Positions 12,596 through 42,449 of a DNA stretch of 64,000 nucleotides are shown here, piece after piece. The stretch's first letter is position 1; each line of letters begins with the position of its first letter. The notes below the pieces were generated by a model. That model was not told the DNA's origin, did no database searches, and saw only the letters and a list, made by a program, of their open reading frames with translations. The stretch is from Spirochaetia bacterium (GTDB lineage Bacteria > Spirochaetota > Spirochaetia > SZUA-6 > Bin103), in NCBI GenBank assembly GCA_965203055.1, contig OZ241863.1, positions 3,872,001-3,936,000 of the forward strand. Reading direction: 5' to 3'. Both the position numbers and the translations under genes were made by a program.

Positions 12596-13947
12596 AGCTG
12601 TGCTCCTCCAAGCAGTTCCATGATGCGGGCGTTGGCCTCCGCCAGCGCCTGCTCATCGACCGCCTCCAGCCGCAGCCGCAGCAGCGGCTCGGTGTTGCTC
12701 GGGCGCAGATTGAACCAGAACCGGTCGTAGCTCACGCTGACCCCGTCCAGCTCCTCCCGGCGGCCGTCGGCGCAGGCGGCCCGCACCCGCTGCAGCGCCG
12801 CGTTCGGGTCGCGCCCGTCGAGGCGGATGTTCACCTCCTCCTGCTGCGCGTAGCGGGCGCGCAGCGGCGCCGCCAGCTCCGACAGCGGGCGCCCGCGCCG
12901 CAGCATCAGGTTGAGCAGCATGCCGAGCCCGTAGATGGCGGACTCGGTGTAGAAGGAGTCGCTGACCCGGAAGTAGAGGTGGCCCGAGGTTTCGTTGCCG
13001 TACCACGCGCCGGAGCGCACCATCGCGTCATGGAGGTGGCTGTACCCTACCCGGGCCTTCACCGGGATGCCGCCGGCCGCGGCGATCTCCTCCGGCAACA
13101 CCCGGGAGGAGATCAGGTCGTAGACGATGGCCGCGCCCGGATGCTGCTCCAGCACGGCGCCGGCGATCAGGGCGCCGGCGAAGTAGCTCTCCAGCGCGCG
13201 TCCGGTCTCGTCGAAGAACAGGATGCGGTCGCCGTCGCCGTCCAGCACCGCGCCCAGCGCCGCCCCGGCGCGCGGCACCGCGGCCGCCGCCTGGCGCTGG
13301 CTGGCGGCCTCCAGCGGGTTGGGCGGGTGGGCGGGGAACGATCCGTCGGGGGCGCCGTTGAGCAGCACGGCGTCCAGGCCCAGGCGTTCCGCGGCAGCGG
13401 CCAGCAGCCCCCCGGCCGAGCCGTTGGAAGCGTCCAGCACCACCTTCATACCGCGCGCCTCGGGACGCACGTGGGCGGTGGCGAACGCCACGTAGGACTC
13501 TAACGCCGCGGCCGGCAGCGCCGGCAACGGCGCCGGGACCGCGGGCGGGACGCCGGCGTCGCCGGCCACCGCCGCTTCGATGGCGCGCAACCCCTTGGCG
13601 TAGCTCACCGAGCCGCCGTTGCCGTCGTACAGCTTGAAGCCGTGGTACTGCGGCGGATTGTGGGACGCGGTGGCCATCACGCCGGCGCCGTAGCCGCGCT
13701 GCAACTGCAGGTAATGCAGCGCCGGGGTGCTGATGCAGCCGGCGTCGCGCAGCGCGCTCCCGGCGCTGGCGGCGCCGGCGCCGAAGGCGCGCAGCAGCTC
13801 CGCCGAGTGGGTGCGCGCGTCGGCGCCGCCGAGCATCTCCGCGGCGCCGCTGAAACGGGCAAAGGCGCGCCCCACCCGGAACGCCAGGACAGCGTCGATC
13901 TCGGCGCCGTAGATGCCGCGAATGTCATACGCCTTGAACGGATTCAT
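12592..13947 (-). CDS. Phosphomannomutase/phosphoglucomutase
   Basis: FKAYDIRG, TASHNP, DGDGDR, RPSNTEP. Confidence 0.92.
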   Translation of the reverse strand: MNPFKAYDIRGIYGAEIDAVLAFRVGRAFARFSGAAEMLGGADARTHSAELLRAFGAGAASAGSALRDAGCISTPALHYLQLQRGYGAGVMATASHNPPQYHGFKLYDGNGGSVSYAKGLRAIEAAVAGDAGVPPAVPAPLPALPAAALESYVAFATAHVRPEARGMKVVLDASNGSAGGLLAAAAERLGLDAVLLNGAPDGSFPAHPPNPLEAASQRQAAAAVPRAGAALGAVLDGDGDRILFFDETGRALESYFAGALIAGAVLEQHPGAAIVYDLISSRVLPEEIAAAGGIPVKARVGYSHLHDAMVRSGAWYGNETSGHLYFRVSDSFYTESAIYGLGMLLNLMLRRGRPLSELAAPLRARYAQQEEVNIRLDGRDPNAALQRVRAACADGRREELDGVSVSYDRFWFNLRPSNTEPLLRLRLEAVDEQALAEANARIMELLGGAQL

Positions 13948-15908
13948 ACGGTCGTGGCGCCGGCCCCCTCCAGGATCCGTTCCACCTCCTCCCATGCCGC
14001 CGCGGCGGCCTGCTGCGCGCGGCCGTTGGCCTGCAGCTTGCGCTTCAGGTCGCGGACCCGCGCGCCGTCGGGGTAGACCGCCGGATCGCCGAGCTGATCT
14101 TGCAACCGGCGCTCGGTTTGCTGCAACCGGTCCAGCTCGTCGAGCAGCGCCTGCTGGCGGCGGCGCAACGCCTCCGGCGCGCGCTCCCCGCGCAGGCGCC
14201 CCGCAGCGCGCCGGGCGCCGGACCGCGGCCGCCGCGGCGCCCGCCCGGCCGCCGCATCACGCCCGCCCGGCGGCGGCGTGAGCGCCGGCGGCGTCGGCGC
14301 GGCCGCGCCCGCGCTTCGCTTCCACTGAAAATAGTCCCATCCGCCGTGATAGAAGCGCACCTCGTCGCGGGTCACCTCCAGCACCTTGGTGGCAAGCTGA
14401 GCGATGAAGTACTCGTCGTGCGAGGCGAATACCAGGGTGCCGGCGTAGCGCCGCAGGGCCTGCGTGAGGATGCCGATGGCGCTCAGGTCGAGGTGGCTGG
14501 TAGGCTCGTCGAGCAACAGCAGGTTGGCCGGCTGCAACAGCAACCGGACCAGCGCCACCCGGCTGCGCTCGCCGCCGCTGAGCACCCGCAACGGCTTGAA
14601 CACGTCGTCGCCGCTGAACAGGAACGCGCCGAGCAGGTTGCGCAAGCGCGGCATCATCTCGCCCGGCGCCACCGCTTCCACGTCTTCCAGCACGCAGTGG
14701 CTGCCGGTCAGTTGTTCGGCGCGGTCCTGGGCGTAGTACCCGACCGTGACCCCGGTGCCCAGCACCACCTGGCCGGCGGCGAGCGGCGCGGCTCCGGCCA
14801 GGGCGCGCAGCAGAGTCGACTTGCCGGCGCCGTTGTCGCCCAACAACGCCAGGCGGTCGCCCCGGTCCAGCTCCAGATCCAGATCGCGGATCACCTGCCG
14901 GGAGCCGTAGGAGAGGCTCAGTCCCGCCGCCCCGAGCGCCCGCCGGCCGCCCGGCGGCGCCGGCGGGAAGCTGAAGCTGAGGTGCGACTGCACCGGCGGC
15001 GGTTCCAGCCGCGGCAGGCGCTCGAGCTGCTTGAGGCGGCTCTGCACCAGGCGCGCCTTGGAGGCGTTGGCGCGGAACTTGCGCACGAACGCCTCCATGC
15101 GCGCGATTTCCTCCTGCTGGCGTTCGTAGGCGGCGGCCATCTGCTCCAGCTCCGCGGCGCGCCGCTGCAGGTATTCCGAGAACAGGCCGGGCCAGGTGCG
15201 CAGCCGGCCGCGGTAGATTTCCGCCACCCGGTCGCAGGTGCGGTCCAGCAACGTGCGGTCGTGCGCCACCAGCAGGAACCCGCCGGGCCAGGTGCGCAGG
15301 TAGCCCTCCAGCCACTGGCGCGCTTCCAGGTCGAGATAGTTGGACGGCTCGTCGAGAAGCAGCAGATCGGAGTTCCGCAGCAGCAGCTTGGCCAGGGCGA
15401 TGCGCATCTGCCAGCCGGAGGAGAAGGCGGAGGTCTCCTGGTCGGCGTCGCGCGGCCGGAATCCCAGGCCGCGGCTGACGCGGTCGAGGCGCGCGGCGCG
15501 CTCGGCGGCGCCGTCCGCGCTCACCCGCTCGGTGAGCTGCGCGTAGCGCTCCAGCAGGCGGTCGAGCCGGGCGCCGTCGCCGGCCGCGGCCATCTCCTCC
15601 TCGACCTGCCGCAGCTCGCGCTCGGCGGCCAGCTCGGCGGCGAACGCGAGCGTCAACTCCTCGTGCAGGGTGCGTCCGGAGTGCTCCACTCCGGACTGCG
15701 CCAGGTAGGCGATGCTGACGCCGCGCCGCGCGATGACGCGCCCCCGGTCGGCGCTGCCGTGCCCGGCGATGATGCGCATCAGGGTGGACTTGCCGCTGCC
15801 GTTGGCCCCGCACAGGGCAATGCGGGCTCCCCGGTCGATCGTCAGACTGACGCCGTCCAGCACCACCTGCGCGCCGTACGCCACGGAGAGATCGGTGACT
15901 GTTACCAT
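13944..15908 (-). CDS. ABC-F family ATP-binding protein
   Basis: Two ABC domains (GANGSGKST, GDNGAGKST), FSSGW/LSGGE signatures, linker, no TM, C-terminal coiled coil. Confidence 0.92.
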   Translation of the reverse strand: MVTVTDLSVAYGAQVVLDGVSLTIDRGARIALCGANGSGKSTLMRIIAGHGSADRGRVIARRGVSIAYLAQSGVEHSGRTLHEELTLAFAAELAAERELRQVEEEMAAAGDGARLDRLLERYAQLTERVSADGAAERAARLDRVSRGLGFRPRDADQETSAFSSGWQMRIALAKLLLRNSDLLLLDEPSNYLDLEARQWLEGYLRTWPGGFLLVAHDRTLLDRTCDRVAEIYRGRLRTWPGLFSEYLQRRAAELEQMAAAYERQQEEIARMEAFVRKFRANASKARLVQSRLKQLERLPRLEPPPVQSHLSFSFPPAPPGGRRALGAAGLSLSYGSRQVIRDLDLELDRGDRLALLGDNGAGKSTLLRALAGAAPLAAGQVVLGTGVTVGYYAQDRAEQLTGSHCVLEDVEAVAPGEMMPRLRNLLGAFLFSGDDVFKPLRVLSGGERSRVALVRLLLQPANLLLLDEPTSHLDLSAIGILTQALRRYAGTLVFASHDEYFIAQLATKVLEVTRDEVRFYHGGWDYFQWKRSAGAAAPTPPALTPPPGGRDAAAGRAPRRPRSGARRAAGRLRGERAPEALRRRQQALLDELDRLQQTERRLQDQLGDPAVYPDGARVRDLKRKLQANGRAQQAAAAAWEEVERILEGAGATTV

Positions 15909-15923
15909 GTGCGTTGCGCCGCA

Positions 15924-15932
15924 AGTGTAGCA
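15924..15932 (-). promoter_or_regulatory. Extended -10 (TGcTACACT) for the ABC-F operon
   Basis: TGn-TACACT 15 nt before the ATG. Confidence 0.45.
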
Positions 15933-15970
15933 TCAGTCGGGCGCGCATTTCGTCAGGCCGCTTGGCGGCC

Positions 15971-16026
15971 CGTCCCTGTCCCCGGTCCCCGGCCAATCCC
16001 CAGTCCTCCAATCCCCAGTCCCAGTG
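15971..16026 (-). repeat. Degenerate G-rich short tandem repeats (GGGACT/GGGGATT-like) 3' of the HNH gene
   Basis: minus strand gggactggggattggaggactggggattggccggggaccggggacagggacggg; shorter version in copy 2. Confidence 0.7.
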
Positions 16027-16064
16027 TAGGAAATGAGATCGCCGCGAGACGTTGAATCACCGGT

Positions 16065-17390
16065 CTACCGGCGCTGGCCATCCTCGTCGGGGCGCCCGAA
16101 TCCGGCGCCGGCGTGGCGATAGCGGTGATGCGCGGCGCACAGCAGCCGGAGATTGTTCGGCTCGGCGCCGCCGCCGCAGGCATACGGCACGACGTGATCG
16201 ATCTGCAGCAGGTGTTGCGAGCCGCAACGGCGCCCGCTGGCGCGGTCCACGTAGCGGCAGCGGCCCCGGTCGCGCCGCCACACCTCGCGCTTGACCGCCG
16301 GGATGGCGCGGCCGGTCACGCCCTTCTTCGCTGCCGAAGTCCGGGTCCGCGGCGGCGCAGCCGGCTGCGCGCACGCCGCAGCCTGCCGGCCGAGACGCCG
16401 CGTCTTCGCCGCCGAAGTGGTGTCGCCCGCCGGCTTCGCTGCCGAAGTGACCGGGCGGTCAGCGGCTTCGTCTCCCGGCTGCGCCGGCGTCTGAGCCGAT
16501 ACCTTCGCCGCCGAAGGAGCGGCGCGGTCCGCGCCGGCCTCCTGCTTCGCTGCCGAGGCCGCCTGCGTCTTCGGCGCCGAAGTTTGCTCGGCGCCTTTGG
16601 CCGGCGCGGTGCGCCGCCCGCGCGGCGGCCGGGCCGGGTCGTGGCGGTCGAGCCCTTCCCGCACCAGCCGCCCCATGAGCTGCCCCATCGTCAGGTGCGG
16701 GTCTACGTGGGACAGGAGGCCCTGGAGCCGCTCCAAGCCGCGCCGGCACTCATCGTCGATCACCGCCTTGATCTCCCAGCGCCCGCCGCCCAGGGGCCGC
16801 ACCCGAGCCGCCGGCGCCGCCAGCTCGGGGTCCACCTCGGCCAGCAACTGCATCACCTCCCGGCTGCTCTTGCCGGACGCCTGCTCCACCAGCTCCCGCC
16901 GCGCCTCCGAGTCCAGCACCGGCACCGGCGCCGGCTTCCGCTCCGCCGGCCGCGGCGGCCCCGAGCCGTTCTGCGACTGAGCGGCAGCCCCGAACCCGGC
17001 CCCGCCCGGCGTGCTACGCGCCGCCCGCTCCTTCCTGCGCTCCTGCCGGTCGAAGGCATGCTGCAACTGCGCCGCCGCGTTCAGCGTCATCATGCCATTC
17101 TGCAGGCGCTCGCGCACGCCGTCGACCTCCGCGCAGAGCCGCATCGCCTTGATGCGCCGCCACGCTGCGGCGTCGCTGTAGCCCAGTTCGCGCACCGCGT
17201 AATCGAACAGGCTCGAGAACCCGCGGCGCAGATACAGGCGGCGCCTATGAATCTCGCGCAGGTGGTCGATCACGACCACTTCGAGATGGTGTTCGATGCC
17301 GGAAAGTTCCTTGGTCCGCTCCAGCAGGAGGTCGTCTGAGAGGGCGGAAACGGTAGTGGTGATGGCCCCGTCGGAACCCTGATTGTTCAT
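16065..17390 (-). CDS. HNH endonuclease with DUF222-like helical N-terminus (copy 1)
   Basis: C-terminal CRY..C..LQIDHVVP..GG..NNLRLLCAAHH; N-terminal LYLRRGFSSLFDYAVRELGYS; Ala/Pro linker with SAAK repeats. Confidence 0.88.
   Translation of the reverse strand: MNNQGSDGAITTTVSALSDDLLLERTKELSGIEHHLEVVVIDHLREIHRRRLYLRRGFSSLFDYAVRELGYSDAAAWRRIKAMRLCAEVDGVRERLQNGMMTLNAAAQLQHAFDRQERRKERAARSTPGGAGFGAAAQSQNGSGPPRPAERKPAPVPVLDSEARRELVEQASGKSSREVMQLLAEVDPELAAPAARVRPLGGGRWEIKAVIDDECRRGLERLQGLLSHVDPHLTMGQLMGRLVREGLDRHDPARPPRGRRTAPAKGAEQTSAPKTQAASAAKQEAGADRAAPSAAKVSAQTPAQPGDEAADRPVTSAAKPAGDTTSAAKTRRLGRQAAACAQPAAPPRTRTSAAKKGVTGRAIPAVKREVWRRDRGRCRYVDRASGRRCGSQHLLQIDHVVPYACGGGAEPNNLRLLCAAHHRYRHAGAGFGRPDEDGQRR
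16326..16582. repeat. Six dispersed 14-bp palindromes CTTCG-N4-CGAAG inside the HNH linker
   Basis: at 16326, 16404, 16434, 16503, 16545 (degenerate), 16569; each encodes (T)SA(A/P)K. Confidence 0.85.
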
Positions 17391-17396
17391 GACATA

Positions 17397-17425
17397 AATA
17401 TAACCATGGAAACTATTTGAGTCAA
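17397..17425 (-). promoter_or_regulatory. Sigma70 promoter giving a leaderless HNH mRNA
   Basis: TTGACT-N17-TATATT-N6-ATG; same spacing in copy 2; -35 lies in palindrome TTGAGTCAA. Confidence 0.8.
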
Positions 17426-17444
17426 GGTATTCGGCCCGTAAGAT

Positions 17445-17584
17445 GCCACCTGCGGGCGTGACTAGGCGGCGCATTTCCAAGCGGCTGGACATTCCGTCAG
17501 ATGCTGCTGCCGAGAACGTCGCCGGCGTCGACAGGGGGTACCGAGGGGCCGGCTGCGACGCCGGCGCGGGCTGGAAGTGCGCCC
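17445..17584 (+). ncRNA. Candidate structured RNA (or ssDNA end structure) divergent from the HNH gene, copy 1
   Basis: stems 17468-17479/17572-17583 and 17521-17530/17556-17565; conserved in copy 2 with G.U-compatible changes. Confidence 0.45.
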
Positions 17585-17586
17585 CA

Positions 17587-19341
17587 TCAGTCGGCAGCGG
17601 AGAAGTACATCACCACCGGGGTCGGGCTGACTTCGGTGACCAGCAGGGTAACCGGGTCCGGCTGGGCCGGGGTCAGGCGGATGCCGTTGGCGTCATACTC
17701 GGCCAGCACGGTGAGCTCCGCCGCCGGTTCGAACGCCGGCGCCGGACGCGCCGCGGCGGCCGCCGGCTCAGCCCGACCTGCCGCTTCGCCGGAGTCAGCG
17801 CCGACGCCTGGGCCACTGGCGAGCGGAGCGGCCGCGGGCGGCGGGTCGGCAGCCTCAGGCGGCGAGTCGGCGGCGCCGGGCGGGGCGGCTTCCGCAGGCG
17901 ACGGATCGGCAGGCGCGCCGGAGTCCGCGGCCCCCGGACCATCGGCGGGCGGAGCTTCCGCGGGCGGTGGGTCGGCAGCCTCAGGCGGCGAGTCGGCGGC
18001 GCCGGGCGGGGCGGCTTCCGCAGGCGGCGGATCGGCAGCGGCAGGCGGCGCGCCGGAGTCAGCGCCGGCGCCGGGGCCATTGGCGGGCGGAGCCGCGGGC
18101 GGCGGGCCGGCAGCTTCGGGCGGCGGGCCGGCGGCGCCGGGCGGGGCGAACAGAAAGGTGATCACCGCATCGTAGCGGCCGGCCAGTTCCTCGCCCGGCG
18201 CGTAGCGAAAGTCGATCCATCCGCTGCCCGGCAGCCCCGCCGGCACCAATCCGGGAACCAGCGCCTGGAAGCCACGCCAGCGGTAGCCGCGTTCCGGGTC
18301 CAGCTCGATGGTGCCGTAGCCGGTGCTGCGCCACACCGCGCCGCGCGCCAGCAGCCTGGCGTAGCGTTGGTCGCGGCGCGCCAGTTCCGCGGCGATCAGC
18401 TCGGTCACGTCGCTGCTCAGGGCGGTGAAGATCCGCGTGACCGTGCGCGCGCCTTCGGCGTAGGTAACGGCCAGCCGGGTGGCGCTCTGCAAGGTGAGCC
18501 GCAACCGACTGACCGTGTCCTCCAGCAGCAGCACGTAGCGCCCGTCGCCGACCCGCTCGATGCTCTCGTAGGCGAACTCGCGCGTTCCCGCCGCCGTGAC
18601 CAGCCGGAACACCTGCGCCGCGGGGTCGGGAAACAGGCCGTACTCGGCCCGAAACCGGTTCAGGTCATAGCGCCCGGTAACCACCATCGCGCGGAACTCG
18701 TCGGGCCGCCACACGGTCGCCAGCAGATGCTCCAGGGTAGCGTCCTCGGCCAGCAGGCGGGCCGCCTCGGCATGCGGATCGCCGCGCGACTCGAACACCG
18801 GCAGAAACTCGCCAAAGGTATAGCCGGTGGTGCCATCCGCGGCGAGCACCTCATACCAGTAGTTCTCGTACACGCCGACCTGCTCCGGCTGCGCGGAGCG
18901 CTCCAGCACCTTGGCCACCTCGCCGGCGCGCAGCTTGTAGACGATGTCGGCGGTGGCGGAGGCCGCGCTGCGCACCGGCAGGCCGTTGCGCGCGGCGTAA
19001 CCGTAGCTGGCGGCGAACGGAGCGTAGCGCGCGGCGAATGCGGCCGCCTGCTCCGGTTCCGGGAACACGCGCACCCGCCAGCGCGCCACCGGCACCGGTT
19101 CCGCGCCGCGCTCCGCGGCGCCGGGCCGGACCATATAGCGATTCTCGATGGAGGACTCTTCCAGCACCAGGATGACGGCGCCCGCGGGCAGCGCGCCGCC
19201 ATCGCTCCACAGCACGACGCCGTGGCCCAGCGGCGCCGGCCCGCAGGACGCCGCCAGCAACGCCAGGAGCGCGCCGCCGGCGGCTGCGGCGGCGCTCCTC
19301 CCGCCAAGCCAGGCCGCCGCGCCGAAGTGCGGCCCCATCAC
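17587..19341 (-). CDS. SH3-domain lipoprotein with Pro/Ala-rich repeat insert
   Basis: lipobox LAASC, SH3b-like VYKLRAGEVAKVL..YWYEVLAADGTTGYTFG. Confidence 0.7.
   Translation of the reverse strand: MMGPHFGAAAWLGGRSAAAAAGGALLALLAASCGPAPLGHGVVLWSDGGALPAGAVILVLEESSIENRYMVRPGAAERGAEPVPVARWRVRVFPEPEQAAAFAARYAPFAASYGYAARNGLPVRSAASATADIVYKLRAGEVAKVLERSAQPEQVGVYENYWYEVLAADGTTGYTFGEFLPVFESRGDPHAEAARLLAEDATLEHLLATVWRPDEFRAMVVTGRYDLNRFRAEYGLFPDPAAQVFRLVTAAGTREFAYESIERVGDGRYVLLLEDTVSRLRLTLQSATRLAVTYAEGARTVTRIFTALSSDVTELIAAELARRDQRYARLLARGAVWRSTGYGTIELDPERGYRWRGFQALVPGLVPAGLPGSGWIDFRYAPGEELAGRYDAVITFLFAPPGAAGPPPEAAGPPPAAPPANGPGAGADSGAPPAAADPPPAEAAPPGAADSPPEAADPPPAEAPPADGPGAADSGAPADPSPAEAAPPGAADSPPEAADPPPAAAPLASGPGVGADSGEAAGRAEPAAAAARPAPAFEPAAELTVLAEYDANGIRLTPAQPDPVTLLVTEVSPTPVVMYFSAAD
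17833..18110. repeat. 126-bp (42-aa) tandem repeat encoding a Pro/Ala/acidic linker
   Basis: agcctcaggcggcgagtcggcggcgccgggcgggg at 17851 and 17977. Confidence 0.85.
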
Positions 19342-38194: not shown

Positions 38195-38768
38195 CACTTC
38201 CTCCTTCACTTATTGCCGGGGCCTGTGTACGGGGCCTTTAGTCGGGCCAACGGCCCGGCAGAACCCTGCCCCCGCTATCCGATGGCGCAACAATGTACAC
38301 GCAATCGAATGTTGTCAACACTGTTGGCTGGCGGCGGCGCGCCGCCACTGCTGGCGGCCACGGACCGGCGCCCCGGTACCTTACTCGATGCCCACGCGCT
38401 CCGCAACGCGCACCCGAGCCCTGCGGGATACCGCCAGATCGCCTTCCCCGGGCGCCGGCGGCGCGCAGGACCTTAGCCCGCGGCGCGCGCCGCAGCGCAC
38501 TGCTGCCGGCGCCGAGACGGCTGAGGGTCACCTCACCCAAGAACGCCCACGGTAGCATCAGCCGGAGAGCTTGTCCAGTGCGCCGCCGGGCCGGCTTGCG
38601 CCAACCCTGCGTGCCCCGTGCATGCCGGCCCCGCGCCGGTACCGGGGGCGACCATGGCCGATTCCCCTCTGCCTGTCAAGCCGCCGCCGCCCCTGCCGGG
38701 CAACCTGGCTTTCCCCTTACATCATCGGCCCCGGAGCGCCCCCCCGTTACCGCAACTTGCCCGCGCCC

Positions 38769-38823
38769 CACACCACCCCTGCGACCCTGCGCCAACACAC
38801 CACCCCTGCGCGCCCTGCACCAA
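38769..38823. repeat. 27/28-bp tandem repeat in a C-rich intergenic region
   Basis: cacaccacccctgcgaccctgcgccaa / cacaccacccctgcgcgccctgcaccaa. Confidence 0.75.
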
Positions 38824-39092
38824 TCCCATCGACGAGCGCGTTAGCTGAGCAGCTACGCTGCGGCAGCAGGTACGGCGTCCGGCAAGCGGCCGCGCTCGCT
38901 CGCGGCCACCGCCGACGGCGCCCCCTGGTGCCCGATTGGGCTGACGCGCTCATCTTCGACTCCCCGCGCCGCCATGTAAAGCGCTGCCGACGCCGCGCCG
39001 TTGTAGGTCATCGATGGCGCCGCCGCTGCTCCGGCGCACGGCCACCTGTTCCGCGGCCACGTCCGGCACGCGCCGCCATCGACGGAGACCCC

Positions 39093-40067
39093 ATGAACGA
39101 CCCTTCGTACAAGCGCCTGCTCAACCACCGGCGCATCATCAAGGACCTGCTGCTCGGCTTCATCGCCCCGCTGCGCCCGCCCGGTTGGGCTGACTCGCTC
39201 GACTTCGACTCCCTGCGCGACGGCCCGACCGAGCAAATCACCGATGACCTGCGCCGGCGCTTCAGCGACGTCGTCTGGTCCATCGACCGGCGCGCCGCAG
39301 GCGATCGCGCGCAGACCGTGCAGGTAGTGATCGAGCACCAGTCATCGGTGGACCACTCGATGCCGCTGCGGTTCCTCAACTACAGCAGCCTGCACTACCA
39401 GCGGAAGTACCGCGACCACCAGTGGCGCAAGGGCGACACTGCCGACCTGGTGCTGCACGTCGTGCTGTACAACGGCAGCGCCCGCTGGAACGCCCCGCAG
39501 TCGCTGGCGGAGCTGGTGCCGAGGTGGGAACACGACGGTCCGGCGCAGCTCGCGCTGAGCTATGACGTGGTTGATCTGGTGGCGCTGGCAGCGGATGACC
39601 TGCCGCGCCCCAACCTGATAACCTGGATGGCGGACGTGGAGCGCAGCCGGCGCGCCGGCGAGCTGGCGGAGCGGGTGCGGGAGTTGGGACAGTGGCTCGC
39701 CGCAGAGGACGAGCCGGAACTGACGAAGAGTTTCGACCTGTGGCTCGGCGCCATGACCCGGAAGTGGGGCGTCAAGTTGCCGTCGATTCGCGACCACGAG
39801 GAGGCACGCGCAGTGTTCTTGGAGAAGATCGATCGCTGGGAAGCTGAGTTCCTGCAAGAGGGACGTCAGCAAGGCCGCCAGGAGGGCCGGTTGGAAGGCC
39901 GCCAGGAGGGCCGCCAGGAAGGCCGGTTGGAAACTATCGAAGGGTTCCTGCGAGCGGGCATCGGGTGGCCGGTGATCGAATCCGCCACCGGCATCGACGA
40001 GCACACCTACCGCACCCTCAAACACGACTCCGCCAACGGCATGGAGCCGGCCGCGCCGCCGCGTTAA
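39093..40067 (+). CDS. Rpn/YhgA-like PD-(D/E)XK nuclease (Transposase_31 family)
   Basis: MNDPSYKRLL, LDFDSL, SDVVW, IEHQSSVDHSMPLRF, VLYNGSARW, C-terminal (QEGR)n repeats; GGAG SD. Confidence 0.9.
   Translation: MNDPSYKRLLNHRRIIKDLLLGFIAPLRPPGWADSLDFDSLRDGPTEQITDDLRRRFSDVVWSIDRRAAGDRAQTVQVVIEHQSSVDHSMPLRFLNYSSLHYQRKYRDHQWRKGDTADLVLHVVLYNGSARWNAPQSLAELVPRWEHDGPAQLALSYDVVDLVALAADDLPRPNLITWMADVERSRRAGELAERVRELGQWLAAEDEPELTKSFDLWLGAMTRKWGVKLPSIRDHEEARAVFLEKIDRWEAEFLQEGRQQGRQEGRLEGRQEGRQEGRLETIEGFLRAGIGWPVIESATGIDEHTYRTLKHDSANGMEPAAPPR
39813..40067 (+). CDS. Putative in-frame intragenic Rpn small (antitoxin) protein, 84 aa
   Basis: GAGGAGG at 39798-39804, GTG 8 nt later, in frame just before the EGR repeats. 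Confidence 0.6.
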   Translation: MFLEKIDRWEAEFLQEGRQQGRQEGRLEGRQEGRQEGRLETIEGFLRAGIGWPVIESATGIDEHTYRTLKHDSANGMEPAAPPR

Positions 40068-40232: not shown

Positions 40233-40291
40233 CTTGGCGGCCAAGCCCAAGTCCCAGTCCCAGTGTAGATGACGTTTCTCGGAGATCTTGA

Positions 40292-41656
40292 TCACCGGTC
40301 TACCGGCGCCTGACCATCCTCGCCGGGGCGCCCGAATCCGGCGCCGGCGTGGCGGTAGCGGTGATGGGCGGCGCACAGCAGCCGGAGATTGTTCGGCTCG
40401 GCGGCGCCGCCGCAGGCATACGGCACGACGTGATCGATCTGCAGCAGGTGTTGGGAGCCGCAGCGGCGCCCGCTGGTGCGGTCCACGTAGCGGCAGCGGC
40501 CCCCGTCGCGCCGCCAGACCTCGCGCTTGACCGCCGCCGGGATGGCGCGGCCGGTCGCGCCGCCGGCCTTCGCTGCCGAAGTCTCGGTCCGCGCCGGCGG
40601 CGCAGCCCGCGCCACGCACGCCACCGCAGCCGGCCGGCCGAGGCGCCGCGTCTTCGGCGCCGAAGCTGCGTCGCCCGCCGGCTTCGCTGCCGAAGTGTCC
40701 GAGCGGTCAGCGGCTGCGTCTCCCGGCTGCGCCGGCGCCTGAGCCGATACCTTCGCCGCCGAAGGAGCGGCGCGGTCCGCGCTGGCCTCCTGCTTCGCTG
40801 CCGGGGCAGCGCCGCGAGCCGAGGCTGCCTGCGTCTTCGCCGCCGAAGTCTGCTCGGCGCCTTTGGCCGGCGCGGCGCGCCGCCCGCGCGGCGGCCGGGC
40901 CGGGTCGTGACGGTCGAGCCCTTCCCGCACCAGCCGCCCCATGAGCTGCCCCATCGTCAGGTGCGGATCGACGTGGGACAGGAGGCCCTTGAGCCGCTCC
41001 AAGCCGCGCCGGCACTCATCGTCGATCACCGCCTTGAGCTCCCAGCGCCCGCCGCCCAGCGGCCGCACCCGATCCGCCGGCGCCGCCAGCTCCGGGTCCA
41101 CCTCGGCCAGCAACTGCATCACCTGCCGGCTGCTCTTGCCGGACGCCTGCTCCACCAGCTCCCGCCGCGCCTCCGGGTCCAGCACCGGCGCCGGCGCCGG
41201 CTTCCGCTCCGCCGGCCGCGGCGGCGCCGAGCCGTTCTGCGACTGGGCGGCAGCCCCGCACCCGACACCGCCCGGCGCGCTACGCGCCGCCCGTTCCTTC
41301 TTGCGCTCCTGACGGTCGAAGGCATGCTGCAACTGCGCGGCCGCGTTCAGCGTCATCGTGCCATTCTGCAGGCGTTCGCGCACGCCCTCGACGTCCGCGC
41401 AGAGCCGCATCGCCTTGATGCGCCGCCACGCTGCGGCGTCGCTGTAACCCAGTTCGCGCACCGCGTAGTCGAACAGGCTGGAGAACCCGCGGCGCAGATA
41501 CAGGCGCCGCTTCTGAATCTCGCGCAGGTGGTCGATGACGACCACTTCGAGATGGTGTTCGATGCCGGACAGTTCCTTGGTCCGCTCCAGCAGGCGGTCG
41601 TCTGAGAGGGCGGAAACGGTAGTGGTGACGGCCTCGTCGGAAGCCTGATCGTTCAT
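40292..41656 (-). CDS. HNH endonuclease with DUF222-like N-terminus (copy 2)
   Basis: close paralogue of 16065-17390; intact HNH motif; linker indels; different last residues via 1-nt indel. Confidence 0.88.
   Translation of the reverse strand: MNDQASDEAVTTTVSALSDDRLLERTKELSGIEHHLEVVVIDHLREIQKRRLYLRRGFSSLFDYAVRELGYSDAAAWRRIKAMRLCADVEGVRERLQNGTMTLNAAAQLQHAFDRQERKKERAARSAPGGVGCGAAAQSQNGSAPPRPAERKPAPAPVLDPEARRELVEQASGKSSRQVMQLLAEVDPELAAPADRVRPLGGGRWELKAVIDDECRRGLERLKGLLSHVDPHLTMGQLMGRLVREGLDRHDPARPPRGRRAAPAKGAEQTSAAKTQAASARGAAPAAKQEASADRAAPSAAKVSAQAPAQPGDAAADRSDTSAAKPAGDAASAPKTRRLGRPAAVACVARAAPPARTETSAAKAGGATGRAIPAAVKREVWRRDGGRCRYVDRTSGRRCGSQHLLQIDHVVPYACGGAAEPNNLRLLCAAHHRYRHAGAGFGRPGEDGQAPVDR
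40568..40848. repeat. CTTCG-N4-CGAAG palindromes in HNH linker, copy 2
   Basis: at 40568, 40652, 40682, 40751, 40793 (degenerate), 40835. Confidence 0.85.
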
Positions 41657-41662
41657 GACATA

Positions 41663-41691
41663 AGTATAATCATGGGAACTACTTGAGTCAA
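41663..41691 (-). promoter_or_regulatory. Sigma70 promoter, leaderless HNH mRNA (copy 2)
   Basis: TTGACT-N17-TATACT-N6-ATG. Confidence 0.8.
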
Positions 41692-41710
41692 GTTATTCGG
41701 CCCGGAAGAT

Positions 41711-41956
41711 GCCACCTGCGGGCGTGACTCGGCGGCGCATTTCCAAGCGGCTGGACGTTACTTCAGATGCTGCTGCCGAGAATGTCGCCGGCGTCGACAG
41801 GGCGCGATCTGCCGGGTACCGACGGGCCGGCTGCGGCGCCGGCGCGGGCGGCGTTGAGGGCGAGCACGCGGGCGAGCACTTCGTCGCGGACTCCGGCGCG
41901 GTCCTTTCAGCGGCTTCGAGGGCGGGATCGGTACCAACAAATTGGAAGTGCGTCCC
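41711..41956 (+). ncRNA. Candidate structured RNA, copy 2 (with ~90-nt extra segment)
   Basis: stems 41734-41746/41942-41954 and 41787-41796/41834-41843. Confidence 0.45.
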
Positions 41957-41998
41957 GACCGGACCGGCCGTCGGGGTCGGCCGCGGGATCGCGCGCCC

Positions 41999-42449
41999 GC
42001 CGCGCCCGAACCTGATATAACCTGGATGGCGGACGTGGAGCGCAGCCGGCGCGCCGGGGAGCTGGCGGAGCGGGTGCGGGAGTTGGGACAGTGGCTCGCC
42101 GCAGAGGACGAGCCGGAACTGACGAAGAGTTTCGACCTGTGGCTCGGCGCCATGACCCGGAAGTGGGGCGTCAAGTTGCCGTCGATTCGCGACCACGAGG
42201 AGGCACGCGCAGTGTTCTTGGAGAAGATCGATCGCTGGGAAGCTGAGTTCCTGCAAGAAGGCCGTCAGCAGGGCCGCCAGCAGGGCCGCCAGGAAGGCCG
42301 GTTGGAAACTATCGAAGGGTTCCTGCGAGCGGGCATCGGGTGGCCGGTCATCGAATCCGCCACCGGCATCGACGAGCGCACCTACCGCACCCTCAAACAC
42401 GACGCCGCCAACGGCACGGAGCCGGCCGCGCCGCGTTAGCTTCCCGCTG
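41999..42449 (+). repeat. Direct duplicate of the 3' half of the Rpn gene (39602-40077)
   Basis: near-identical sequence; 2-nt insertion near 42017; two fewer 12-bp EGR repeat units. Confidence 0.92.
42212..42439 (+). CDS. Putative stand-alone Rpn small (antitoxin) protein, 75 aa
   Basis: GAGGAGG at 42197-42203 + GTG retained, frame intact to TAG. Confidence 0.55.
   Translation: MFLEKIDRWEAEFLQEGRQQGRQQGRQEGRLETIEGFLRAGIGWPVIESATGIDERTYRTLKHDAANGTEPAAPR

Follow-up and report, generated by a model that had tools for sequence, protein, structure and literature searches.

A transposase-free HNH nuclease element in a Spirochaetia genome is probably a non-autonomous derivative of an ISKra4-family insertion sequence

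The Spirochaetia genome studied here (GCA_965203055.1; G000 among the genomes that we compared) is a single contig (OZ241863.1) of 4,557,819 bp with 68.75% G+C, and the window that we analysed, a 64-kb stretch at positions 3,872,001 to 3,936,000, carries a 1.65-kb element between a gene for an SH3_3-domain protein and a gene for an ABC-F ATPase. The only gene of this element encodes an HNH protein. We conclude that the unit is quite probably a non-autonomous derivative of an ISKra4-family insertion sequence (IS), namely a mobile insertion cassette (MIC) with an HNH passenger gene, moved in trans, and that it was most likely the ISKra4 transposase of the same genome, not a new HNH-based mechanism, that moved it. 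Directly observed were the insertion and its empty site in relatives, the target duplication, the IS-like ends and an intact autonomous IS, together with a duplication length and a promoter-proximal target preference that are the same for the IS and the HNH elements. Since the ends, the duplication and the promoter-seeking habit are all common to the element and the resident IS, the IS transposase is the most likely mover. The original prediction, made from the sequence alone, had described a mobile unit without a transposase that spreads by means of its HNH protein or of an enzyme acting in trans; mobility and the missing transposase hold, and the enzyme in trans is now favoured, while the HNH-based mechanism is not supported. 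Its description of the sole gene as an HNH nuclease, with no DDE, HUH, recombinase or reverse transcriptase gene beside it, agrees with the Pfam and NCBIfam searches, which matched HNH families only.

As first reported, the word CATCAGTCGG occurs exactly at 15931-15940 and 17585-17594, and it was found nowhere else in the window; shuffled sequences gave an expectation of 0.16 occurrences, and two copies were reached in 1 of 100 shuffles. This word had been taken for a 10-bp target-site duplication. A duplication is indeed present, but its length is 8-9 bp (CATCAGTC or CATCAGTCG), because the remaining one or two G's can equally be assigned to the terminal G's of the inverted repeats. The copy at the 3' (right) end of the element lies at 15931..15939 (CATCAGTC(G), the 10-mer extending to 15940), and the copy at the 5' (left) end lies at 17585..17593, where it overlaps the stop codon of the SH3 gene (17587-17589). 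The target context consists of the SH3_3-domain protein gene (17587..19341, minus strand) upstream of the insertion and the ABC-F ATPase gene (13944..15908, minus strand) downstream of it, and the right end of the element faces the upstream region of the latter. The empty site, previously no more than plausible, was found in relatives: when 24 of them were searched with the SH3 protein, 23 orthologous loci could be fetched, none of which had an HNH match. In 20 of these loci the SH3 gene is followed immediately by the ABC-F start (17-70 nt away in those read), and the other three loci had no ABC-F match. The closest relatives have a single GTGTAGCATCAGCC at the SH3/ABC-F junction, and their intergenic sequence reads ...CCAAGTGTAGCATCAGCC..., with the word single there and on both element flanks in G000; CATCAGCC is present once in the empty site. 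These HNH-free junctions indicate that the element at this locus is a real insertion.

Contigs from four public runs (X1, X3, X5 and X9) joined the ABC-F flank to the element interior in all four, and the SH3-side junction was crossed in X1, X3 and X9; the contig of X5 gets as far as this junction but has too little sequence within the element to count as bridging. The insertion therefore appears common to the sampled populations. A joint that skips 15940-17585 was not among the contigs of these runs, although contigs cannot prove its absence. Within 16007-17521, each of the four runs had a summed contig depth roughly 20-100 times as high as in the flanks, a value that fits many collapsed copies in the community and is not a copy number. 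The SH3-domain gene has a repeat of its own, three tandem units of about 111-135 nt at 17802-18173 that code for a Pro/Ala-rich stretch.

The resident IS came to light when the end motif was sought in G000 at sites distant from HNH genes, and the end sequences GGGCGCAYTTCC... of the HNH element proved to be those of a 1,521-bp ISKra4-family IS. The core GGGCGCACTTCCAA bounds nine IS copies, all 1,521 bp long except for one of 1,254 bp. Their open reading frame (ORF) of 467 amino acids encodes a DDE transposase that scores 214.6 bits on NF033572 (ISKra4 family transposase, NCBIfam; cut-off 205), and eight transposase copies in G000 exceed the cut-off of this family hidden Markov model (HMM). 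Between the IS and the HNH element, 23 of 24 nt are identical at the 5' ends and 33 of 40 nt at the 3' ends, the latter covering the CCTGACGC stretch with the stop codon of the IS transposase. The likeness is confined to the ends: the transposase gene belongs to the separate 1,521-bp IS, and the HNH element has HNH-family matches only. Moreover, the left (AATTTGT...) and right (AAAAYGTAGGTA.GCGTCAGGC) ends are asymmetric, and the asymmetry has the same orientation relative to the gene in both. The window copy itself retains 13 nt of the left repeat and about 12 nt of the right one. The symmetric inverted ends (9 of 11) that had been noticed just inside the duplication thus exist, but as remnants of asymmetric IS-type repeats, and the earlier statement that the unit resembles no standard IS family has to be given up.

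The IS and the HNH elements also agree in their duplications. In the GGGCGCAC register, the nine IS copies have exact target duplications of 9, 8, 8, 8, 8, 9, 0, 9 and 9 bp, so that eight of nine carry the 8-9-bp direct repeats of the ISKra4 type; such a duplication, matching at 8 or more of 9 positions, flanks four of the ten HNH elements in which both ends were found, and the window copy is a fifth. Permuted flank pairs gave a mean of 0.59 matching elements with a maximum of 4 (2,000 permutations).

The two kinds of element have the same target preference, too. A -35-like box, defined as TTG with at least 5 of 6 matches to TTGACA and starting 13-19 nt from the junction, was found at 4 of 18 right ends of the IS and at 7 of 29 right ends of HNH elements, with a peak at position 17; the corresponding numbers for left ends were 0 of 9 and 1 of 28, and random G000 positions gave 0.7%. 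At the family level, then, insertion is upstream of promoters and in one orientation, with the right ends of the IS and of the HNH elements about 16 nt upstream of a TTGACA-like -35 box.

Further ISKra4-type sequences were met in the course of these searches. One full IS copy (G000:C1:623722-625242) lies inside an HNH element, flanked by a 9-bp duplication (TTCCGGGCC) and 16 nt upstream of the -35 box of that HNH element, a direct instance of promoter targeting. The relative G010 has an ISKra4 IS of its own (L039:2880-3060), whose transposase is 65% identical and whose right end is the same (TTTTGGAAGTGCGCCC), followed by 16 nt and then TTGACG, which is the promoter geometry of G000. Variants of the terminal core (CGGGCACTTCCAAAAACGTAGG..., GGCGCACTTCCAAAGTGTGTTGGTGAC...) occur in G000 at 599636, 1814266, 2493299 and 4255028, and at 1281228, 1727359 and 4102301; associated neither with an HNH gene nor with the 1,521-bp IS, they may be other ISKra4-type miniature inverted-repeat transposable elements (MITEs) or subfamilies.

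Read in the direction of the gene, the parts of the HNH elements come in the following order. The left inverted repeat GGGCGCACTTCCAATTTGTTGGTACC... is followed by a variable leader of 80-330 nt, by an internal right-end-type repeat (...CCAGCCGCTTGGAAATGCGCC) whose outer end points toward the gene, and by a 41-nt spacer; then come the promoter (TTGACT, 17 nt, TATAYT), which stops 6 nt short of the ATG, an ORF of some 450 codons, a 3' stretch of about 80 nt and the right inverted repeat ...CTTACCTACATTTTGGAAATGCGCCC. In the window copy, the left-end inverted repeat core GGGCGCACTTCCA (17572..17584, minus strand) is identical to the IS left end over its 13 nt, after which an internal deletion begins. 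The internal right-end-type repeat GGCGCATTTCCAAGCGGCTGG (17468..17488, plus strand), of which G000 has 25 copies, has its outer end toward the HNH promoter and lies 41 nt upstream of the -35 box. The element's own promoter (17397..17425, minus strand; TTGACT, 17 nt, TATATT) matches the consensus at 10 of 12 positions, and its -10 box ends 6 nt ahead of the ATG, so that the transcript is probably leaderless. The HNH protein gene (16065..17390, minus strand) encodes 441 amino acids from the ATG common to all copies, in a frame that is open to 17492. Beyond it are a 3' untranslated stretch (15971..16064, minus strand) with a short CCCCAGTCC-type repeat run and a damaged right-end inverted repeat with sub-terminal sequence common with the IS (15939..15970, minus strand; ...GCCAAGCGGCCTGACG/AAATGCGCGCCC). 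Judged against the complete copy at G000:968884-970597 and the 3' end of the IS, this repeat lacks 16 nt that other copies have (CTTACCTACATTTTGG) and contains a GC insertion, and about 12 nt of the right inverted end AAATGCGCGCCC are kept at 15939-15950 (minus strand). With both ends damaged, the window copy is probably immobile now.

These features suggest a model in which the unit has kept the left and right inverted repeats of the IS, the transposase gene having been replaced by a cassette of HNH promoter plus ORF. An ISKra4-group transposase acting in trans would bind both ends and insert the unit, making a staggered duplication of 8-9 bp and placing the right end toward the promoter region between the SH3 stop and the ABC-F start. 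The internal repeat may point to a composite origin: given that ISKra4-type insertions lie upstream of promoters and point their right end at them, an end of this type could have come to rest upstream of the HNH promoter and become the internal repeat, and a more distal right end would then have been used together with the left end. The actual mover would have been the present transposase or an older variant of it, and the HNH protein would be a passenger or a selfish helper, not a recombinase.

The element is one of many in this genome. A blastn search of G000 with the element returned 32 high-scoring segment pairs (HSPs) of at least 1,300 nt plus many fragments; apart from the self-match at 100%, identity was about 75-92%, and 86-92% for all but one. 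HNH protein matches number 44, and promoter-bearing HNH copies 36. A second copy in the window (40247..41957, minus strand; HNH ORF 40292..41656, 454 amino acids) is the close paralogue that had been noted 24 kb away, and its sequence at 40247-41849 is 91% identical to the first. It has a left-end repeat near 41942-41957 (GACGCACTTCCAAT) and no recognisable right-end repeat, and it is flanked on both sides by copies of the 3' part of an Rpn/YhgA-like gene (39618-40059 and 42017-42434). The first of these belongs to a gene for an Rpn/YhgA-like putative transposase at 38571-40067 (PF04754, E 3.5e-18), whose 3'-terminal 440 bp are repeated in direct orientation beyond the HNH copy; as this gene family is multicopy (57 blastn HSPs in G000), the second piece is probably left over from another paralogue, and a giant target duplication is improbable. 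Elsewhere in the genome, a gene for glucose-6-phosphate dehydrogenase has a divergent HNH copy (G000:C1:1319849-1321120; L091:3523-4896) about 1.4 kb away, whose likeness is confined to the ORF (69% identity in protein, about 75% in DNA). Neither end repeats nor the common promoter were detected in this copy, which may belong to an older subfamily lacking IS ends. An independent MITE derived from the 5' leader was considered and rejected: 47 of 59 leader HSPs adjoin HNH genes, and the standalone ones are fragments only.

Based on Pfam, the HNH protein belongs by its C-terminal part to PF01844 (26.2 bits, and 26-28 bits over the window proteins; cut-off 21.4), with PF14279 below threshold, whereas the DUF222, DDE, HUH, recombinase and reverse transcriptase families gave no match in the HNH proteins of the window at E values up to 10. 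The protein has an N-terminal and a middle helical DNA-binding domain, Ala/Pro/Ser-rich linkers and a C-terminal HNH domain with the motif QIDHVVPY...NLRLLCAAHH. Alignment of 40 relatives likewise showed three conserved blocks with low-complexity linkers between them, and the DH...N...H and Cys/His positions (catalytic and zinc-binding) are nearly invariant. The AlphaFold model has a mean predicted local distance difference test score of 76, rising above 90 in the domains. Residues 364-442 match the folds of EcoKMcrA (Z 7.4), the GVE2 HNH nuclease (Z 7.1) and the HNH domain of IscB (Z 6.9), and residues 32-190 match the DNA-binding domains of ParB, KorB and SopB at Z 6-6.5, which is modest for helical folds. 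The protein thus models as a ParB/KorB-like DNA-binding domain joined to an HNH nuclease. A hidden RNase H/DDE fold was listed neither by Foldseek against the PDB nor by a wide VIA-align search, an absence of match that is not proof; Foldseek returned nothing at E values up to 0.001, and its best weaker rows were HNH domains.

The DUF222-like N-terminus of the original prediction survives as a remote likeness. PF02720 (DUF222) matched neither the window proteins at E values up to 10 nor a six-frame scan of G000; sub-threshold matches of 16.7-21.2 bits (cut-off 24.4) were obtained for 4 of 22 distant relatives, and clusters that bear the name DUF222 (score 0.94) are among the language-model neighbours of residues 1-262. 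The relation is thus remote at best. An IscB/HEARO element is excluded (IscB had been proposed for a profile check): NF040563 gave 21-24 bits against a cut-off of 175 and on the HNH part only, the model has no RuvC fold, and Rfam families had no match in 15800-17750 at E values up to 1. No match for the element was found in the PADLOC defence-system library.

ORFs of 400-520 amino acids are present in 20 of the 36 promoter-bearing copies, and 18 of the 20 have the full HNH motif. Over 190 pairs, the ratio of nonsynonymous to synonymous substitution rates (dN/dS) was 0.15 in the N-terminal domain, 0.35 in the middle domain, 0.35 in the HNH domain and 1.0-1.3 in the linkers, and the low values in the folded domains indicate that the protein has been kept functional.

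Of 23 genomes of the same taxonomic family, 20 carry the HNH gene, the number of matches in one genome reaching 74, and in other families of the order there were marginal matches only, in 2 of 17 genomes. Copies in the relative G011 that are about 90% identical to those of G000 carry the same ends (L050-L052). Between G000 and G011 the HNH family is 91% identical in protein sequence, compared with 41% for SH3 and 50% for ABC-F (tblastn), a discrepancy that points to an apparent horizontal movement of the element between lineages.

However, several observations weigh against mobilisation by an ISKra4 transposase, the first of which come from the relatives. When the transposase was scored there with the family HMM, no match was found in G011 (35 HNH matches) or in G007 (42 HNH matches), G012 (34 HNH matches) had a 75-bit fragment only, and G017 (54 HNH matches) had nothing above 30 bits. 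At seven G011 loci, which belong to the class with 75-82% identity, and at all five loci compared in G012, only the promoter and the ORF are common (about 1.45 kb in G011), and the end motif was absent within 1.5 kb at seven of eight HNH loci from other genomes. The end-less G011 copies were compared with G015, which has only two HNH matches. The insertion at L076 has no duplication and was accompanied by a loss of about 260 nt, which does not fit the model. At L064, where G015 has 14 nt and G011 about 1.7 kb, the first bases of the insert, ...GCGGACTTCTT, agree with the repeat core in 9 of its 11 positions, and its 3' side faces a TTGACC 16 nt from the G015 junction, so that this copy looks like a decayed ISKra4-type insertion. 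L062 and L066, with repetitive or non-syntenic flanks, gave no usable empty site, and the upstream flank of L063 is itself a repeat: a sequence of about 1.26 kb (L063:1-1260) directly upstream of the HNH copy, with at least five G011 copies at 94-100% identity and occurrences in G012, G014, G015, G019 and G023.

The remaining objections arise in G000 itself. An automatic scan of 23 near-full HNH genes recognised both ends in 10 and missed one or both in 13, the window copy being counted among the 13 because its damaged ends were overlooked; no clear duplication was seen in six of the ten two-ended elements. The copies near 4.27 and 4.32 Mb have lost their left end. At the expected -35 distance the window copy has TTGCGG only, which matches TTGACA at 3 of 6 positions. 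Pairwise identity among the HNH elements is 84-94.8% (median 90.8%), whereas the IS copies are 98-100% identical to one another, and next to an IS that is evidently active no recent HNH transposition is visible. This gap in age indicates that the HNH family is old, and it leaves mobilisation by the transposase of today an assumption. Nor is the passenger neutral, since the dN/dS values of its domains mean that the protein matters to something. In view of these objections, the HNH cassette may contribute some drive itself, or may travel by a second route.

It is also conceivable that the DUF222-like HNH cassette is a selfish, sequence-specific nuclease that drives its own spread or retention in the manner of homing endonucleases or of TnpB and IscB, repeatedly colonising defective IS shells (of ISKra4 in G000) and dispersing as bare promoter plus ORF where a matching transposase is absent. 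We regard this as possible but unlikely. If true, it would point to a second instance, here protein-guided, of transposons driven by their nuclease cargo, and to a mechanism for repeats of the REP13E12 type.

A role of the HNH protein as the enzyme of mobility, be it an HNH transposase or a homing-type nuclease, with the ISKra4-like ends incidental or a secondary vehicle, is in our view improbable. The dispersed promoter-plus-ORF copies without such ends in G011 and G012 and the genomes with 34-54 HNH matches but no ISKra4 transposase speak for it; it also accords with purifying selection on the folded domains, with the full motif in most long ORFs and with the strong promoter of the gene, and a DNA-binding domain joined to an HNH domain, as architecture alone, resembles free-standing homing endonucleases. 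However, every transposition signature of the window subfamily is that of ISKra4 (asymmetric repeats, 8-9-bp duplications, and the geometry of right end to promoter), and HNH nucleases are not known to make staggered target duplications of fixed length. The end-less copy at L064 looks like an ISKra4-type insertion that has decayed, and, with no pair of copies more than 94.8% identical, recent autonomous activity was not seen.

A division of labour, in which the DDE transposase cuts and joins while the HNH nuclease acts as an accessory drive or retention factor that raises copy number or persistence, is in our view very improbable. It would account for the cassette excess (36 promoter-bearing HNH copies to 9 IS copies), and the domain-wise purifying selection, the conserved promoter and the 91% protein identity across genomes whose SH3 and ABC-F proteins are so much less alike are all consistent with it. 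But a target for the nuclease is without direct support, neither a structured RNA partner in Rfam nor a defence-system match was found, and the excess could equally reflect the age and small size of a neutral passenger element. Finally, a dispersed paralogous gene family kept alike by gene conversion, with a chance 10-bp repeat, might have been suggested by the many copies with ragged or missing ends and by homology that often stops at the promoter and the ORF end, yet it is already contradicted by the relatives' empty site exactly at the repeat, by duplications above the permutation expectation, by ends common with a bona fide IS and by -35 boxes that peak at position 17 next to right ends, and we give it practically no credence.

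Trans-mobilisation by a promoter-targeting ISKra4 transposase, which we favour, replaces an apparent HNH transposase with an ordinary mechanism. The passenger stays interesting, with its near-consensus promoter, its purifying selection, its roughly fourfold excess over the IS and its spread across the taxonomic family, transposase-free genomes included. Elements that sit upstream of promoters, with an outward-facing promoter and no terminator found, may also rewire their neighbours, for example the ABC-F gene.

We found no description of an HNH passenger within ISKra4 ends in the literature, as judged by titles, abstract beginnings and passages, the supplementary tables of PMC3942029 excluded. 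According to passages of that study (Guerillot et al. 2014, PMC3942029), the ISKra4 family corresponds to p-MULT 4 of the Mutator-like DDE transposases; in these families the inverted repeats measure 18-39 bp and have a conserved cytosine at the terminus, the direct repeats measure 8 or 9 bp, members of the ISKra4 group insert 13-17 bp upstream of sigma-A promoters, and some ISKra4 elements carry extra genes. Measured against these passages, the HNH element resembles an ISKra4 IS in its terminal repeats with a terminal G/C, its 8-9-bp direct repeats and, at the family level, its insertion in one orientation and at a set short distance upstream of a -35 box. It differs in having no transposase gene, in its HNH cargo with a promoter of its own, in the extra internal right-end-like repeat and in being about four times commoner than the autonomous IS.

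In MICs, repeats and duplications of the IS type enclose passenger genes, there is no transposase, and the cognate IS is found elsewhere. The HNH element has this composition throughout: IS-type ends, a duplication, a passenger, no transposase, and the cognate IS in the genome. Described MICs have few copies and resistance or metabolic genes as passengers; the HNH element carries a nuclease under purifying selection, in dozens of copies. The IscB/ISC elements are similar in that a nuclease with an HNH domain resides in a transposon that depends on a transposase in trans; the HNH element differs from them in that it has no RuvC domain and no Rfam RNA family and that its HNH domain is C-terminal, and inverted repeats with target duplications set it apart from elements with ends of the IS200/IS605 type. 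Nevertheless, TnpB and IscB nucleases help IS200/IS605 and IS607 elements to persist, and the pattern of the HNH passenger resembles this nuclease cargo. To our knowledge, REP13E12 of Mycobacterium tuberculosis has no described IS-type ends or target duplications, and the protein of the window falls below the Pfam threshold for DUF222; the two have in common a multicopy unit (about 1.4 kb in REP13E12), a helical N-terminal domain with a C-terminal HNH domain, and a spread that is unexplained for REP13E12. In the passages of PMC10589994 that mention it, citing Gordon et al. 1999, REP13E12/DUF222-HNH is treated only as a repetitive element. The HNH passenger described here could open a way into these REP13E12/DUF222-HNH repeats.

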